Part shown: positions 1-64,000 of the stretch, one piece after another | Layout of the letters: every line of letters starts with the position of its first letter | Position numbering within the stretch: position 1 is the stretch's first letter | Origin: a virus | Direction: 5' to 3' (one strand) | IMG/VR virus record: IMGVR_UViG_3300025131_000014 | Coordinates: 26,317 to 90,316 of that record | Length of the DNA stretch: 64,000 nt | The notes under the pieces: generated by a model | What the model saw: the letters and a program-made list of their open reading frames with translations, nothing else | Databases searched by the model: none | Told to the model about the DNA's origin: nothing | Made by a program: the position numbers and the translations under genes

Positions 1-3000
1 AAACTTTTCCATACTATTTACATAGAAATCATAGAATTCTTTTAGCTCTGGAACTTTCATTACTTCTTCAAACTCTTTGTTCCAATGTTTGGCTGCAGGT
101 ACTGATGGAACATAGCGACTAGCAAAATTGTATTTAAGGACAGCCCCACTTGGAATTTTTCCTCCTGATGTAAGGCTATTAAAAAGTTCATTATAGATAA
201 AAGGACTGTTTTGAACATCCCATTTATCTCTAGCTGCTTCATATGCTCTTAGATCAAAATTACCGTCTTTATCTACAGATATTACTTTTAAATCTTCTAT
301 TATTTCTGTTCTATTTTCAACAAACTTATTGAAAAGAGTTTTTTGTTCTGTTAATAGAGCATCTATCATTTCAGTAGCTACTTCTCTTCTTTCTTCATTT
401 CCATCTACAAGCTTTTCTATAAGCTGTTCTCTATATTCTTTTCTTTGCTGAGCTGTAGTTGGTGCTTGTTCAATTCCTAAGTCTGTTTTTCGTGGATCAT
501 ATATTTCTTTACCATCTATAAGCATACCAATATCGATAGCTACAATATTTTCTTTTTGCCATAGCATATGCTTTTTATAAGCAGCATTAGAAGGTCCTAC
601 TCCTTTTACACTATTGATATGATTTCTTTTTTCCCATAATTTTTGAAAATAAGAACGGTTGATTCTACTAAGTAAATTTCCTGTAAGTTCTCCATTTTCA
701 TCTTTTTGGGCAAGCTTGTCAAATTTTTCTTTTATATTGCCTGGTCCTATATTAAGTTTTTCAATTGCTACGTTTATATCTTTAACATGACCTTCAAATT
801 CATTACTAGCTTTTATAATAGCCTGTTGTAACCATTTATCTACAATTCTTACTATTGGAACTTGAGAAGAGAAAGCACCTCTTGTTTGAGCTGCAAATGC
901 TCCTGTATCAAACTGAGGTCCAAATATATCTTTCATGGCTAAGTCTAATCCTGCAGATGAATTAACCATTTTTCCTATTATTTCTCTAGCACCATGTGTC
1001 CATCTTGTTTCTAAATCTTGAAGTTGACTAGCAATATCTCCAAAGTTATATCCATGAAATTGTGTTTCTCTGGTTACTCTGTTCATAACCCCTTTCCAGG
1101 ATTTAATTATTTTAATTACTGAGTCAAGTTCAGAAAGATTTCCTCCTTTATGCAAAACTTTATCTGCCCAGTCTAGCTGTTCTTTTGCTATTTTAAGTGT
1201 TTCAACTGAAGTTTGTTCTCGTAAAAGATCATCTCTTTGTTCTTTTATTTTAGCTATTCTTGCTTCTAAAGGAGCAACTGGATCTTCTCCTTTGTTTTCT
1301 AAAGAACTTGCTCTAGTAATACTTCTTTCAAGATTTTTTATTTGATTGTTAAGCGAATTAATAATGATCTGTGTAGCTGAGTCAAGTTCTCTTTTCTTTT
1401 TTCTTTGTTTTTGCGGCATCGCATCAGTACTGTAATCGCCTTCAGGTCTTTCATCAGTTACTACTATAATGTAACCTCTGTTTGAATCTGGAAATACTTT
1501 AGCAGTTACACCAGGATTTTCAGCTTCGATCTGTTCAGCTCGGCTATTTGCTGTTGTAATAAGAGTAAATAGTTTCTTTCCTCCGTGTCTATTAAGTAAG
1601 CCATAGCCTTTTTCTATATTATATAAAGAAAGATTTCTTATAGGAACTTCTTTTGCTTTAGGTTTTTGAGCATAGAATACTTCACCTTTTTTAGTAGCTA
1701 TTCCTATTTTTCCTGTTACTACAATAGGAGTTGCAAGTTTATTAACAGTTCCTTCTTTTATAGCTTTCTTTATAAGTTCATTAGAATACTTAGGACCTAC
1801 TCCTTCAATTGTTGATACAGTAATATGAGGATGTTTAACTTTAGATTGTGGATTTTCTATAATAAGTGCCTGACCTTTTTCATCTTCTACAGTTGCTATT
1901 ACAGTTAAAGGTATTTCTTGTGTATAAGGTAATGAGTTTATAAGATCTTGATCGGGCATAAATTGAATTGTAGAATGATGCATATGAACATTCTTATGTT
2001 TTGCTGGAAAAGTTTCTAAGAGAGTCTTATGTACTTTTTTAGAAATAAAGACAGCAGCATAAAGAGCATCTTTTTTAAGTTCTCCTAATGATATAGGTGC
2101 TTCTTTTTTAGGCATATCATCCTTTCCCCAAGCTGCATCTAAGAAATCATCTCCCATCATATTTCCATCGATACCTGCATCTGAAATAGGATCATCTGCT
2201 TTGAGTTCTTTAAAAGGTAATATACCTTGATCTAAATTTTTATATGTAACGTTTTTATTTAGTTCTTTAGTTGCCCATTGCTCTAAAGTTATAGGGTTTT
2301 TTATAGTCTCTCCTGCTTCTCTTTCTCTGTCTAGATATTCTGCCAATACTGCATCCATATAGTCAAAAGCATCACTTACTGCTCCTACTTCAGGCCATTC
2401 CAGTATATCTACTATCTGTTTATTAACAGGTGTTTTATTTGCACGTCCTAGTGAGCTAAAAGTTCTCATATATGTATACATACCCTCACCGTAAAACTCA
2501 TCAATATGTGTTAGCAGAGCCTCCCATTCTGTTGGCCATTTTTCTTTAGGTTCTTTATATATAGGTAATGCACTTATAATATTACCTACATTCAATTGGA
2601 ATTTGTTTTTGTTTTCTGCTGCTATTAGTACATACTCTGTTTTTAGAGTAATTTTTTCGCCATACTTGTCTGTTACTTCTATTTCTTTAGGAAGTCTTTC
2701 TTCTATTCTTTGTCCTTCTGCATTTGTATAAGTTTTGTTAAGTAATGTATCTTTTGGAGTAGGATCATAAACAGAATCCCATTCTTCTGCTCTTTTAGTC
2801 ATATCCAAATATTTATTCAATCTGGATATTGGTTTTTCTATATCTTCTGAGGATTTATATTTTGGAGCCAATTCTGTATAATGAATCCAACTCCCACTTG
2901 GTATATAAGCATTTTGGAAATATTCGCCAGGAATAAATTTACCATCATATTCAGTACCTTTTGTTTTAAGATATTCTTCCAATTTCTTGTTGTCTGAATC

Positions 3001-6000
3001 AAATTCTTCTTTAAACTTCTTGGCTATTAAGGCATCAATTATAATTCTCCCAACACTAAGGTCTGGTTGTCCTCCAAACTCTTCAACTATCATTTGAGAT
3101 GCGCCAGGTGCTGCACGACCAACTCCTTCATCCCATGTCCCTCTATGTTCTATTATTTCCCCTTGTGCCTCATTATTAAATTTAGCAGCTATAAGAGATT
3201 CAATAGACATATCTTTATATTCTTTTAATTTCCCTTTTACATAATCTCCTATAACACGTTCATATTGTACTAAATCTTTATCTTTTTCATATTTATATTC
3301 CTTAATGGTATATTTACCTTTTTTAATCTTAATCTCTTTTTTAGATACTATTTCATCCCATGCTTCGAATTTTAACTGTTTGATTATTTCTTCATCTGTT
3401 ATCTCAATTATTTTACCTTTATCTGCAACTCTTTTACTAGTGCCTGATTTGCTTCTTGTAGCATAATCCAATGCTGTGTCTAAATAAGGAGTCAAAGAAA
3501 CCCCTGTTGTTTTGCCTCCAAAATTATCTTGTGCAAAAATTGTTAAGTCTCCGTTCTTATCTATTTTATATTGAGATTCAAGAGATACGCCCCTATATAC
3601 CTTTTTCTGTTTCTGAGCAATTTCTTTAGGATTCTGATTATATCTTACTTGTTTTTCTTCTTCAGTAATCGCAGGCACTTCTTCAATATCCCCTTTTTTT
3701 ATGTTTTCTGTTTTTTTGACTTTAACACCTTTAACCCCACTACTTTGTTGTGTTGGTTGAGTGGATTCTAATTCTTGTTGAGCTAATATTAAACCTTCCA
3801 AGAATGCTTGGTCTATTAATTGATTTGTGTTATGAGTAAAGCTCTCATACTGCATTAACTTTTTAGCAGCTTCTGAATTAGAGTTTTGTTTAAAAGACTC
3901 AACTACAAGTTGTTTCATTAAACCTAAACTATCTGTTTTTTTCATTTGTGCAACAGTACCTTTACCTCTTATTTTTTTCCCATATCCTCCAATCCCAACA
4001 TATTTGTTATAAGTAGCTTGATCAAAAGTACCAGACTTATTAGATTGATAAGCATGTTCTACACTGCCGTATTCTCTACCTTTCCAAGTAAACTCTCTTG
4101 GAGCTAGATTAGATAAAATTTTGGTAGAATATTCAGACTCAGCTTGTCCCCAGTATACATTAATAGTTCCTTTCTTTTCAACCTCACTAGTTTGTTGTGC
4201 TGGTCCAATATTTAATTTACCAGTATTAAACCATTCTTTACTAAATATAATATTAGAAGGAATAGGTCCAGCAGCATTAAACATATCAATCATTTCTAAT
4301 CCTGTGTAGCCATTTAAAGATGCTTTAGTAGTATTTCTGTACGCTACTTTAAATTGTTTATTAGGATTAGCTCTGGCAGTCTCATATAAAGATTTAATAG
4401 ATTCTGTAATTTGTTGAGGAGAAATAGATTTAAGACCTTTATTTTCTTTTACTCTTAAATCTTTCGTAGGTAAAGCATAAGCATTTCCTTGTAATCCTTC
4501 TCCTTGTCCATACTTAGCACCAAATTTATCTTTAGCTTTTTTAGCTGCCCCTGCACCATGCCTACCTTCTGGATTACTTCCAAATACAAATATTGTATTT
4601 TCTTCAGGAGTTATATCGCCCTCATAATATTGAGCGACCTCTTCTTTTACCTCTATATCACTGTCTTCTGGTACTATTGTAGGGTCATTAAATCCATATT
4701 CTTTATTAAGTCTATCAGCTATAGCTCTTTGGAACTCAATCATTCTTTCTTTAAACTCTTTTTCTCCTCCTTGATATCCAGTGTCTCTTAAAATGTTATT
4801 ATATGCCTCAAGTTCTTCTAGAGTAAGTGGAATAGCGTCATAAAACTTTCCTGTTCTTCCTGTACCTCCCACAGCTCCAACACCTCCGTCTCTTTCAGCT
4901 TGGCCATATCGCTCAATTCTTGCTTTTCCGTGTAGTCCTGATCGTAAATTTATTTTTAATTGGTAAGTATTATCCCAAATATTCTTTATAGTCTTTTCAG
5001 GATACGTACCTAAGTAAAGATCAGGAGTTACAACACGATCAACAAATTCACTATCTTCTACAATATCGGCTGCATCCTTATAAAATTCTTTTTGGGCTCC
5101 TACTAAGTTAAGTGTTTGATTAAGAGCAGCTTCATAAAGACTTTTATCTTCAAATGTTTCAGCTAAAGGATTATCCTTTTTTAAGGATCCAACTAAGTCA
5201 GCAAGTAAGCTTAATAGTTTTTCCCATATATTTTTACCTTCTTCATATCCTTTAGGTATTTTATGGGATAACATAAATGTTCTTAATCCTTTAGAGGCTG
5301 AAATTCCTGCTGTAAATTCATTTACTGGATGATTAATAGAAACAAGAGGGTATATATATGTTGATTCTGCCCATGTTAATGTTTGATTATTAATAGATTT
5401 TTCTTTAACTCTTATAAAGTCTGCTTCAGTAACTCCGTCTTTACCAAATAGCTGGGCCAATGTAACAACTTCTTCTGTTGTATCCTCACCTTGTAAAACT
5501 CGTGTATCTGGTGATGCTGCTATTAGAGCGTCTTTAGTATGTGTAGCTAATTTAATAAGTTGATTAACAATTTTCTTTGTTTCTGGTGAGGCAATGCCTT
5601 TCCTGACTTGATTTATAGCTGCTAAAGTTAAGAAGTGTGTTAATTCATGTATAATAATAGTTTCTTCTAAATATCTTTGATTTTCAGGAGCAAGTTCACT
5701 TGTCCATCCTGTATCTTCTCTTTTAAAACTAACCTCTGCTAGTGTGTATTCTCCTTGGTCATTAAAGCTGCTTCGAAACACTCCGCTTGATATTGGACCT
5801 TTTGTTCCATTAATCTTAATAGTTACTTTAATATTTTGAGGAAGTGTTTCTATAACTTCTTTATAAGCAGTGGCCATTTTTTTATGATAGTCACTATTAG
5901 AGTTAAATCTAATATCCTCTAACATTTCAATAATTTGTTCTTTTTGATTTTTTATACCTTTGGTTACTTCTGTAATTGAGGGGTCTTCTGACGGGTCTTT

Positions 6001-60646: not shown

Positions 60647-61099
60647 ATGAAAGATTTAATTCAGTTGGTTGCTATTCGCTTGTCGAATAATCCAACAAAA
60701 GCAGTCATTGATGCAGTAGACGGCATTGATGGCAAGCTGAATGAAACTTCCGACGGTCGTGGGTACTATCTTGCTGTCTTCAAAGATGCCAACAACCCTT
60801 TTGCTGAAATGCGTACACGCATGATTTCACAGCAATTGGACTCTGATGGCAATCCTTCGTGGAAAGCTGGAACACCTAGCATGATTGCAAAGTTCGTAGG
60901 GCGTACAATGCCTGGTTCTATTGTGACAGCTACGGTTGAACCCTATATGATTGGCAATAACGAACAGACCGTTTATACGACTGTTGTACTTGGTTCCGAA
61001 ACCACTGCACAGGCGTTCAAGCGTGCTGGCCACGTTCTTGCTGTCGATAGGACTGAAGTGCCCTTCACCGAAGAGGAGTTGCAGGATGCGAAAGAATAG
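60647..61099 (+). CDS. Hypothetical protein, first gene after the strand switch (150 aa)
   Basis: Clean ORF, visibly more GC-rich than the late genes, followed by a strong terminator; acidic C-terminus. Confidence 0.8.
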   Translation: MKDLIQLVAIRLSNNPTKAVIDAVDGIDGKLNETSDGRGYYLAVFKDANNPFAEMRTRMISQQLDSDGNPSWKAGTPSMIAKFVGRTMPGSIVTATVEPYMIGNNEQTVYTTVVLGSETTAQAFKRAGHVLAVDRTEVPFTEEELQDAKE

Positions 61100-61120: not shown

Positions 61121-61249
61121 CAAATAAGACGAAAATCATTGTGATTTCCCATCAAGAGCACGTCCTAGTGTTCAATCACATCATTTTAATAAGATTTAAG
61201 TATTATGTTATTATAACACATAGTTATATTATAGCATAACAAGACATTG

Positions 61250-62200
61250 TTCTTCCTTAACAGAGGACGAACGAAGAGTGCCGTGTATGCATAGTTATGG
61301 CTAACATTTAGTTAGTCAACAAAGCTATGATACATTTGAGTGCACAGTTATTGTGGTCTTTGACTTAACCGAAAGGTATGCAAGTAACCAAACTTGTAGT
61401 TTGTCAAAGTAAAGCAATGATATCTGTAATCCTATGTAAGTATCAGCGTGGTAATAAGCGCATGGTCTGCAGTCATGTTGGTGTGACGCATAGGTAAACA
61501 AAATATGATGTGTGTTGTTAGAGCCGACAAAAGTGCGTAAGTCTTTAGTTCCTCGCCAACAAGCCATTGACTGCTCCATAGGGAGGATAGGCGCGAGGAC
61601 ACACGACATCAATTTATGTATTGTCATGCTTTCATTAACCGCATGAATATCCAGTAAGTTACTGGCGATGACAACTATCAGTAAAGTTGTGTTTTTCTTT
61701 AAGGTTTGCAAACCTTGACAAGCTTGTGGGGCTACAAGATACTTCTAATTAATCCTGTTCCACGTCCAAAATCGCACCATGGTGTAAGTAGGACTATTAG
61801 GGATTAATATGTGCAGAAATGGCGGGAGCTATAAAAGTATTTAATTATAAGTTTACTTCGGTAAATGAGTAATTATCACAATGTTTTAATATATGACTTA
61901 GCGGTTATATTGAAGAGATATTGTGCTGTTAGTGCGGATGTAAAAATCAAGCAATTATAAATCTAGGACGGTAAACTAGATGGAAGTTATTCTTGCAAAT
62001 AACTTGGTGATGGTAAAGTATATCACCGAAGCGACCTATCTATAGCCTCCGAAAAGAGAGGTTTTCAACTATAGATACTATTCCTGTACTGTTGAAAAGT
62101 ACATACAACTATTCAGGTTGGGTAATGCACGGCTAGGTTAATTCGTGGAATACGTTGAGGAGATCTATATGTCATAAGGGTCTCGCTTTGCATTATTTTA
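61250..62200 (+). ncRNA. Candidate large, highly structured ncRNA (about 950 nt)
   Basis: Continuous nested stems and multi-way junctions, C(UUCG)G and GNRA loops, G-U pairs on the + strand; no credible ORF. Confidence 0.6.
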
Positions 62201-62702: not shown

Positions 62703-63050
62703 ACTAACTTTGTTAGTCGTGGTTTGAGCCACGTTAAATAGTGCTTTAAGCTCAAAGCGTTACATAATTGTAGGGGCAATCGTCAGGAGTTGGCAGCGTA
62801 GACACTAATGTAGTGAATGCTGTAGGTATCCGAAATGTTTAACAAACATCCTTTGATTTGATGAAGTATAGTAATCAAAACATAAAATAGGACACATATT
62901 TAATGATGCGTAAGCATACATTAGAATAAGGAACTGATAGCAAACATTTATTGACCTAAATGGGTATCGCATGGTGATGTATGCGCAGGAGTATTATACT
63001 CTGTTAGATTAAGTAAGTCATCATAAATGATAACAGAATCGTTCCTTAAA
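62703..63050 (+). ncRNA. Candidate structured ncRNA (about 350 nt)
   Basis: Serial hairpins and a closed multi-branch domain (aaggaac 62928-62934 / gttcctt 63041-63047). Confidence 0.4.
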
Positions 63051-63322
63051 AAAATAACAAGGTTGTTTGATAAAACTATTGTTGAATCACCACTGCCGAG
63101 AAAGATAGTAGGCACCAATTAGTAATATGTTATGTATTACCATATTCATTAGAGTCAGCTGCAACTGTTAATGAATTAATGATAGCACGAAATGCAAAAA
63201 TGGCGTTATCAGATTGGTTAAAAAGTGACGAGATGTACCAGGCTTCTAGAAAGCGGACAATAGGATGAGTCTTAATTATATATGAGAGGATAGTCTCAAA
63301 TGTAATTCCTTGTTTTTAAAAT

Positions 63323-63568
63323 AGAGCCAAGCAAGACTGGAACAACACTGTTGTTGACTATTAATATGTCATCACAGTGCCAGGTGCTCTTTAAACTAAG
63401 GAGGTTTAACTACTCACAACTGCAGTTGTAGAAGTAGAGTTGTAAGAGTAATTACTTATAGCTGTATCTCCAGATATAACGAGAGCCAAGCAAGACGTGC
63501 AATTTAAGGAACAGATGATGTAGTGGTTTTTTCCACGATTATTTATGACGTTCTGGCACGGTGCTCTT
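63323..63568 (+). repeat. Two copies of a structured motif AGAGC-CAAGCAAGA-stem...stem-GT-GCTCT
   Basis: Exact 15-mer AGAGCCAAGCAAGAC at 63323 and 63482, each closed by GGTGCTCT; the inner stems differ in sequence but both pair. Confidence 0.8.
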
Positions 63569-63629
63569 AAGACAAAAGACCTATAACCAATAGGCATCGT
63601 GTTATATATTATAGCACAATCATTAAATT

Positions 63630-63941
63630 AGCACAAGCAAAGTCGTTACGAAAGAATCTCGAGTTTGTTACCATCTCAAAACCCAACGGGCCAAAGGACT
63701 GATGTGTAAAGGAAAGTTAGTATTAAATGTATTGTACAAAGCATTTAATCATCCAAGATAAGAGCAGCAATGCCATGACTATCTGTAGCTATTATAAGAG
63801 CAATCTTTAGCGGTAACAAGTACTATGTCAAGATCACATCCAGGGAAACCGCAAGTCGTAACTATGAGAGTGAGTAAGCAGGCAACAAATGTTTTTTTGT
63901 TGGTCAGTGTTCTGAAAGGATACTGTAGGCTTTGCTGTGCT
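63630..63941 (+). ncRNA. Candidate structured ncRNA (about 310 nt)
   Basis: Ends pair over 14 bp (agcac-a-agcaaagtc / ggctttgct-gtgct), followed by a T-rich tract; internal long-range stems and a GCAA loop. Confidence 0.55.
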
Positions 63942-64000
63942 TCTTTTTGATATTAACAGAAAACAATCGCTTTGTAATCCTGTTAATATGTATACATTAA

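Follow-up and report, generated by a model that had tools for sequence, protein, structure and literature searches.

Toward the end of a phage contig, an RNA motif with an asymmetric internal loop (nine nucleotides on one strand and two on the other) appears twice, with the same loop and with different stems and arms. The locus raises three linked questions: whether the two copies are a genuine structured RNA, whether they belong to a catalogued family, and what such an element might do where it stands. The window, by which we mean the whole stretch of 64,000 nt that was analysed, is the final 64 kb of a 90,316-nt IMG/VR record from a marine crAss-like phage.

A gene-free island built of RNA modules

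Minus-strand genes extend to 60193 of the window and are followed by a lone plus-strand ORF of 150 aa (60647-61099), after which inspection of the open reading frames left essentially no credible gene from ~61100 to the window end. The motif lies in this gene-free island of ~5 kb, an array of closed RNA modules that includes Hatchet, Pistol and GOLLD RNAs (Table 1). Because the last ~455 nt of the window are repeated at the record start (63555-64000 against G000:C1:1-455, locus L008, 88.7% identity), the island continues there. The outer parts of this overlap are identical, with ~50 differences concentrated in 63680-63885, inside a ~310-nt terminal-stem RNA, a pattern suggesting that the assembly wrapped around and joined two strain variants of that RNA. 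A tRNA search of the island found none, no GenBank phage matched the island by blastn, and relatives sought with the neighbouring 150-aa protein yielded no confirmed locus. Pfam and PHROG assigned no function to the small ORFs near the motif. As a separate observation, the Rfam alignment places GG at the consensus GU cleavage dinucleotide of the window Pistol, whose P2 has only three clean pairs.

Comparison with four relatives (L011, L082, L161 and L199) resolves the island into successive units that each have a terminal helix closing them, are separated by A/U-rich linkers of 8-11 nt, and are reordered, lost or replaced between genomes. The local order in the window is module W, copy 1, module Y, copy 2, a promoter-like TATATTATAGCACAA that also occurs at 61225, and the ~310-nt RNA. 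A repeated TATATTATAGCA(T/C)AA is found at the island start (61225-61239) and ~37 nt past copy 2 (63605-63619), as well as in L011 and L161. A CCUAUAACCAAUAGG hairpin often stands before this repeat, which may serve as a promoter dividing the island into transcription units. Module W behaves like a cassette that is gained or lost, being common to the window and L082 and missing here from L011, where copy 1' directly follows module X. The copy-1 slot is taken by another element in L082: the stretch between modules W and Y (~270-350) is unrelated to the motif, consisting of a possible H-type pseudoknot (ACCC..GGGG, GAGACG..CGUCUU) and then a hairpin, with no Rfam match.

Module Y is an RNA in its own right, separate from the motif, and its position in the array differs per genome (L011 ~3312-3386 on the minus strand, L082 353-425 and L161 1270-1340). 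It too has no Rfam match. Its invariant stretches are UUAACUACUCA, AGAAGUAGAG, AGUAAUUAC and GCUGU, and its stems covary, for example ACAACUG/CAGUUGU against AUAGAUG/CAUCUAU. L011 has its two copies side by side, with module Y ~320 nt upstream. Other recurrent units are tRNA-like elements of 83 nt (L082 1188-1270, L161 1350-1431, and on the minus strand L011 326-408 and L199 1578-1660), which match the tRNA-like ends of the tmRNA model alone at 44.6-52.7 bits; they have an acceptor stem, a T arm and CCA/CUA, have no mRNA-like part and are not called by ARAGORN. Full-length tmRNA genes lie in the non-coding islands of L027 (247-657, minus strand) and of phage phi14:2 (L286, 4031-4502).

Two copies with one base and different arms

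The preliminary description had placed the copies at 63323-63390 and 63482-63567 and had read an identical 9x2 loop beneath stems and arms that differ yet still pair. Both copies are found there as described, sharing 15 nt on the 5' side and 9 nt on the 3' side, and copy 2 becomes 63481-63568 when a sixth pair (G-U) is included. A repeat search recovered the exact 15-nt repeat at 63323-63337 and 63482-63496 and the exact 3' repeat GGTGCTCTT at 63383 and 63560, with no third exact copy in the 90-kb genome. The interiors, of 39 nt in copy 1 and 55 nt in copy 2, both begin and end with a helix of 4-5 bp and are unrelated except for a common GGAAC. The copies thus represent two paralogue types that have 24 identical base nucleotides in common and unrelated arms. 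The fixed base consists of P1 (AGAGC/GCUCU), the 5' junction CAAGCAAGA, a closing C-G pair and the 3' junction GU. Right after P2, type 1 arms have a second A-rich bulge (AACAA or AAUAA), and type 2 arms have AAUUUAA there.

Table 1. Positions of the motif elements and of the RNA modules around them (window coordinates unless a locus is named)
Feature	Position	Strand	Remarks
Hatchet ribozyme (RF02678)	61695-61952	+	Rfam 48.5 bits, E 4.7e-8, slightly below the gathering threshold of 51
Pistol ribozyme (RF02679)	62718-62779	+	Rfam 49.3 bits, gathering threshold 34.5
Module W	63055-63312		~260 nt, closed by AACAAGG/CCUUGUU
Copy 1 (type 1), P1 5' strand AGAGC	63323-63327	+	Pairs with 63386-63390; invariant in 8/8 instances
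Copy 1, 9-nt 5' junction CAAGCAAGA	63328-63336	+	Same in every instance; position matches pistol J2/3
Copy 1, P2 (CUGG/CCAG) and distal arm A (AACAA bulge, P3, P4)	63337-63383	+	Predicted fold
Copy 1, 2-nt 3' junction GU	63384-63385	+	Length and identity invariant
Copy 1, P1 3' strand GCUCU	63386-63390	+	
Module Y	63400-63472	+	Conserved three-stem RNA of ~70 nt between the copies; covarying stems
Copy 2 (type 2), P1 5' strand GAGAGC	63481-63486	+	Pairs with 63563-63568; sixth pair G-U
Copy 2, 9-nt 5' junction CAAGCAAGA	63487-63495	+	Part of the exact repeat
Copy 2, P2 (CGUGC/GCACG) and distal arm B	63496-63560	+	
Copy 2, 2-nt 3' junction GU	63561-63562	+	Invariant
Copy 2, P1 3' strand GCUCUU	63563-63568	+	
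GOLLD RNA	L008:1859-2244 (record start)		206 bits

Relatives in a narrow marine lineage

Relatives of the motif were sought via terminase-anchored loci, by pattern scans of IMG/VR, JGI metagenomes and GTDB with a pairing filter, and with a covariance model. These searches gave eight distinct instances, from five related marine phage contigs and four metagenome contigs, and the 9-nt/2-nt loop is invariant in all of them. Every instance is marine and lies within the same kind of island. G001 (L011) has one copy of each type, 10 nt apart; the copy-2 type is found in G002 (L161/L129), in G003 (L082; also L266 and L276) and in L281, and the copy-1 type in L199 and L273. Over the identical base we distinguish three kinds of arm, namely type 1 with tip A (window) or tip C (elsewhere) and type 2 with arm B. 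The copy-1 type in L011, L199 and L273 has CAGG/CCUG as its P2 (U-A replaced by A-U) and an arm tip replaced by a GAAA-capped hairpin, and the copy-2 type in L082, L266 and L276 has CAUGC/GCAUG. The base of arm B is identical across five genomes, and its apical stem varies between GUGGUU..CCAC and GUGGCU..GCCAU.

When the same genome pairs are compared, identity is 86-99% for copy 2, 78-90% for module Y and 76-88% for the tRNA-like element. The copy-2 differences fall nearly all in the apical hairpin, where pairing is kept; ~24 nt of the base and ~35 nt of arm B are invariant while the neighbouring modules drift. No variant within the motif was seen in contigs of four DNA sequencing runs; the runs listed for the sequence include no RNA run.

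The same searches set the limits of the family. Two degenerate-gap pattern scans of IMG/VR returned 96 and 86 stretches, of which 3 and 2 were real (L075, the same contig as L011, is counted both times) and the others failed the pairing test. The metagenome pattern scan returned 37 stretches, 4 of them real, and the scan of GTDB genomes at least 120, with none among the matches listed passing the pairing test. The sole addition from two scans with arm-B words, L409, lies inside a coding region and was set aside as a chance match. A covariance model, as proposed in the preliminary description, recovered the known lineage and added nothing further from 54 terminase-anchored relatives and 18 whole records. 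The ~72-75% terminase relatives, five near-complete genomes included, do not have the motif, and a descriptor search tolerating two mismatches in the loop gave nothing credible. Given this absence from the ~72-75% terminase relatives and from the GTDB matches listed, the family is real but narrow. In the cultured phage phi14:2, the intergenic regions contain the tmRNA and have no motif, pistol or GOLLD.

Compensatory changes and the choice of fold

The case for an RNA structure was said at the outset to depend on further instances with compensatory changes, and such instances were found, with P2 pairs that change together. In a model-based alignment of the eight distinct instances, 72 of the 72 cells of the nine P1 and P2 pairs are standard pairs, and two of the four P2 pairs change on both sides: position 2 is G-C in four instances, A-U in three and U-A in one, and position 3 is U-A in five and G-C in three (n=8 for both). 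The observed covariation score was reached by none of 500 shuffles, nor by any slid register. The five core P1 pairs never covary, the lone change being G-C to G-U, and since they are near-invariant they carry little information on structure. A sixth P1 pair, compared across nine instances, is G-C in three (L082, L199 and L273), U-A in one (G002), G-U in two (window copy 2 among them) and U.U in three. G-U pairs are present in P1 and in P3 of arm C; because they would be A.C mismatches on the opposite strand, the fold belongs to the plus-strand RNA. Selection on structure, which had been claimed from the two window copies, is thus upheld by the covariation in P2, by the arm swapped over an invariant base and by G-U pairs that are workable on the plus strand alone.

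An alternative register pairs AGCA of the loop with UGCU and lies within ~2.4 kcal/mol of the proposed fold in all eight instances, being the minimum-energy fold for two of them (window copy 1 and copy 1' of L011). This shifted fold leaves four of the eight instances without an outer helix, and the varying sixth P1 pair fits the unshifted register alone, for which reasons the proposed 9x2 fold was kept.

Comparison with the pistol ribozyme

Rfam scans, which had been suggested as a check, were run at the gathering threshold and then at E up to 10; they leave the family uncatalogued, with no Rfam 15 match for it in the window, the 3.1-kb island or a 311-nt stretch. At E up to 10, the interval 63323-63568 gave just a 13-bit snoRNA noise match on the minus strand. 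The Pistol covariance model gave no match to the motif at E 10, either in the 311-nt scan or across the whole genome.

Pistol ribozymes cleave themselves in a Mg2+-dependent reaction that yields a 2',3'-cyclic phosphate and a 5'-OH. The motif resembles the pistol core in its layout, with a helix, a long 5' junction, a variable hairpin, a 2-nt GU junction and the return strand of the helix. The asymmetric junction of the pistol type is present throughout: GU occurs in 8/8 instances and the flanking helices pair in 100% of cells. In pistols, the right junction linking P3 to P2 is strictly two nucleotides long, usually GU, and holds the scissile bond (Harris et al. 2015, PMC4604425). The context in copy 1, CAG-GU-GC, is also like that of pistol, and the motif junction C-AAGC-AAG-A can be aligned on J2/3 of the window Pistol (U-AAGC-UCA-AAG-CG with the pseudoknot letters removed). 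Both RNAs are found in the same phage islands.

Disrupting the P1 hairpin or the pseudoknot, both of which are very important in pistols, cripples activity (PMC4604425), whereas the motif has neither. Its 5' junction is 9 nt long as against ~14-15 nt, its P1 is invariant in sequence, unlike pistol P2, and CAAGCAAGA offers no clean match for three active-site features of pistol, namely the G33-C41 pair, the G40 triple, and G42 (PMC6154101). These belong to a set of ~10 highly conserved pistol nucleotides that also takes in purine 32 and an A-rich linker; the linker upstream of the motif is A/U-rich, as are all linkers of the array. No common hairpin lies in the 25-40 nt upstream of the instances, which hold the closing strand of an unrelated module and an A/U linker. 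Nor is there a complement of CAAGCAAGA, be it all of UCUUGCUUG or a run of 4 nt or more from it, that the instances have in common on either side of the motif or within the arms. A search for trans targets of the loop gave genome matches to the loop sequence that lie in minus-strand genes, in the same sense. Without a P1 hairpin, a pseudoknot, clear counterparts of the active site or a model score, the motif is not a member of the pistol family, and a literature search for pistol variants without a pseudoknot returned nothing relevant. We take the likeness to pistol as a lead about mechanism; provided that the module is pistol-like, the GU junction of copy 1 would be the predicted cleavage dinucleotide.

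The slot in front of GOLLD

G002 has, in this order, module Y, a tmRNA-like tRNA-like element, a hairpin and copy 2, with GOLLD next. Only 8-10 nt separate the end of the motif from the first hairpin of GOLLD, which leaves no room for a promoter, so that the motif and GOLLD must be co-transcribed. The same slot just 5' of GOLLD is filled by a 67.6-bit Pistol in L015/G004, whose GU lies 3-4 nt before GOLLD, by a tmRNA-like tRNA-like element in L011 (44.6 bits, E 1e-14), and by AT-rich promoter-like sequence in L026, L027 and L082. In L015 the Pistol (2083-2149, minus strand) ends right at the first hairpin of GOLLD (1400-1774, minus strand) and, since the two abut, its cleavage would create the GOLLD 5' end. 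As for complete genomes, G002 has the motif without a pistol and G004 a pistol without the motif. Two of the three structured occupants of the slot are known RNA-end-making devices, and the shared slot is suggestive of a placement of the motif equivalent to that of pistol.

In phi14:2, a cultured marine crAss-like phage of Cellulophaga, the early region contains long intergenic stretches whose rightward transcription is seen from the earliest time point and exceeds that of most genes (10.1101/2020.03.07.982082). These data support the expression of such islands in general and not of the present island in particular.

Discussion

The motif is a real, uncatalogued and narrowly distributed structured-RNA module, and the two copies in the window are paralogues. 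As to its function, the preliminary description had offered a protein-binding site, an aptamer or a small catalytic core. A riboswitch-type aptamer has become unlikely because the element lies among RNA modules and has no consistent placement within a 5' UTR, and the catalytic core has gained a lead from the pistol-like layout, the GU junction and the placement by GOLLD. Our preferred reading, which we hold tentatively and with well under even confidence, is that the motif may act in cis in RNA processing and be cut at GU or close to it, possibly by self-cleavage of a pistol-like kind that dispenses with the pseudoknot. From the observed sequence, helices, loop invariance, array context and GOLLD placement, we infer transcription, cleavage, the cut position and the catalyst as follows. 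An array transcript from the plus strand of the early non-coding island would carry the module, which would act in cis as a 'punctuation' element. A break within the GU junction or beside it, made by the RNA itself or with the help of a nuclease, would leave the hairpin attached to the upstream RNA and set free the module that comes next (module Y, GOLLD or a small mRNA), preceded by a short 5' leader. Self-cleavage as such seems unlikely to us. Similarly unlikely, if worth stating, is the bolder proposal that the motif is a new minimal self-cleaving ribozyme, either a pseudoknot-free relative of pistol or a convergent analogue, in which the 9-nt strand and the A-rich arm bulge would form an active site at GU, and which would be used interchangeably with pistols and tRNA-like elements to cut the early transcript into units such as GOLLD.

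Besides the differences from pistol listed above, several observations count against processing in cis. The uniform A/U linkers of 8-11 nt mean that host RNases could cut there without any punctuation modules, and as modules shuffle between genomes, the adjacency of motif and GOLLD in one genome may be chance. The invariance of basal arm B is not needed by a mere P3-like spacer. One rival reading is in our view nearly as likely as the preferred one, though still improbable taken by itself: the motif would be a protein-binding or decoy/scaffold RNA with a sequence-specific site, freed by host RNases at the A/U linkers that uniformly flank every module and acting in trans on a partner such as a phage or host RNA-binding protein, a defence factor or a translation factor. 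It accounts for the invariance of ~24 nt of base and ~35 nt of arm B amid drifting neighbours; that P1 never covaries, though able to, suggests that its sequence is read beyond its shape; and the two A-rich bulges on one strand (CAAGCAAGA and AAYAA/AAUUUAA) resemble a recognition or docking surface. However, it leaves unexplained the exact GU junction and the pistol-equivalent placement by GOLLD, and no protein gene travels with the motif, the small ORFs beside it differing between genomes and having no Pfam or PHROG function.

The other readings appear less probable still. A nuclease-dependent signal of the phage T7 RNase III-site type, in which one nick on the 3' side would separate the units of the early transcript and leave a protective 3' hairpin, is decidedly unlikely. 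It shares with the T7 early sites their logic and position, being repeated within one transcription unit and between units, and also a conserved asymmetric loop; yet with a P1 of just 5-8 bp, and a helix over the loop that is interrupted after 4-5 bp by the second large bulge, the motif would be a poor RNase III substrate, and RNase III requires no invariant 9-nt sequence. More doubtful again is a module with no function of its own, either a decayed or domesticated pistol remnant or a recent duplicate hairpin under gene conversion. The shallow distribution over five phage and four metagenome contigs, the identity of P1 and loop even between paralogues and the resemblance to a pistol minus the parts required for activity would all fit, and with just two paralogue types in one shallow lineage the invariance of P1 and loop could partly reflect recency or gene conversion. 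Against this, the 24 flanking nucleotides have stayed identical around arms that were replaced or are so diverged as to be unrecognisable, the changes in P2 are compensatory, copy 2 is better conserved than functional-looking neighbour modules, and the motif recurs in differing neighbourhoods in five genomes. We give very little weight to a conformational switch, in which GUGCUCU would pair with AGAGC or, shifted, with AGCA of the loop and so gate access to a flank or a partner; the small energy gap between the two folds in 8/8 instances, with the shifted one preferred in two, speaks for it, but the loss of the outer helix in 4/8, the register of the sixth P1 pair and the absence of an evident effector or regulated target speak against it. 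Least credible of all is an element acting at the DNA level (a protein-binding inverted repeat, an origin, or a packaging or recombination site). The record start falls inside copy 2 and the record ends overlap, but the overlap has the look of an assembly wrap-around of two strain variants, the G002 record, which has direct terminal repeats, contains the motif ~19.3 kb inside, the G-U pairs would be A.C mismatches on the other strand, and the covariation preserves pairing in the RNA.

Although pistol, hatchet and GOLLD RNAs came to light about a decade ago, their biological role is, to our knowledge, still not understood. The island puts all three in a single, presumably co-transcribed array, and a GOLLD-side slot that is filled by a pistol, a tRNA-like element or the motif leads to a model of ribozymes as interchangeable punctuation of phage non-coding arrays. 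The motif may accordingly represent a new way to cut a long non-coding transcript into pieces. If it self-cleaves, it would be a new small ribozyme class or the first pseudoknot-free form of pistol, informing the minimal needs of RNA catalysis and providing a compact insulator part; if it does not, its invariant loop would mark a specific protein or RNA partner of an abundant early phage RNA.

Relation to known systems

Several known identities were tried and rejected. By-eye comparison ruled against hairpin ribozyme loop A (a 4 x 4 loop, and the motif is without loop B), hammerhead (CUGANGA..GAAA is absent), group II intron domain 5, and the kink-turn, loop E and 11-nt receptor motifs, none of which fit. 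The combination of AGCCAAGCAAGA and GGUGCU resembles letters of E. coli 4.5S RNA, which we put down to coincidence, given the permuted order and the absence of a match to any SRP model. An intrinsic terminator, which would be an unbroken GC-rich hairpin with a U-tract after it, was not reported by a terminator scan (the 3' flanks are UUUAAA, UUAAGA, AACGAU and CAAUUU), and in G002 the motif stands inside a transcription unit, right before GOLLD. A twister-sister or lantern identity fails on the size and letters of the loop and on the absence of an Rfam match.

The RNase III sites of T7 early mRNA (R1.1 type) are repeated hairpins with an asymmetric loop, in which a single cut on the 3' side leaves a 3' hairpin. 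They have helices of ~10 bp on both sides of a ~4 x 5 loop, whereas the motif has short interrupted helices and an invariant 9 x 2 loop. In its setting, a gene-free island by early genes, the motif is like the ribozyme-associated arrays of phages and bacteria (Weinberg et al. 2015; PMC5737381) and like phi14:2. The islands in those reports, where the motif itself is not described, combine several self-cleaving ribozymes with GOLLD or tRNA-like RNAs, and their modules are gained, lost and reordered between relatives. A further parallel is offered by the lantern (twister-sister-like) ribozymes LINE-1 and OR4K15 from human DNA, in which two helices and one conserved internal loop self-cleave, slowly (~0.1 per min) and without a pseudoknot or distal tertiary contact (PMC11620745). 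Their loop of 6 x 5 nt differs from the 9 x 2 loop of the motif in size and sequence and the two are not homologous, but lantern ribozymes cut at a CA step in the longer strand of the loop, and the long strand of the motif likewise begins with CA.
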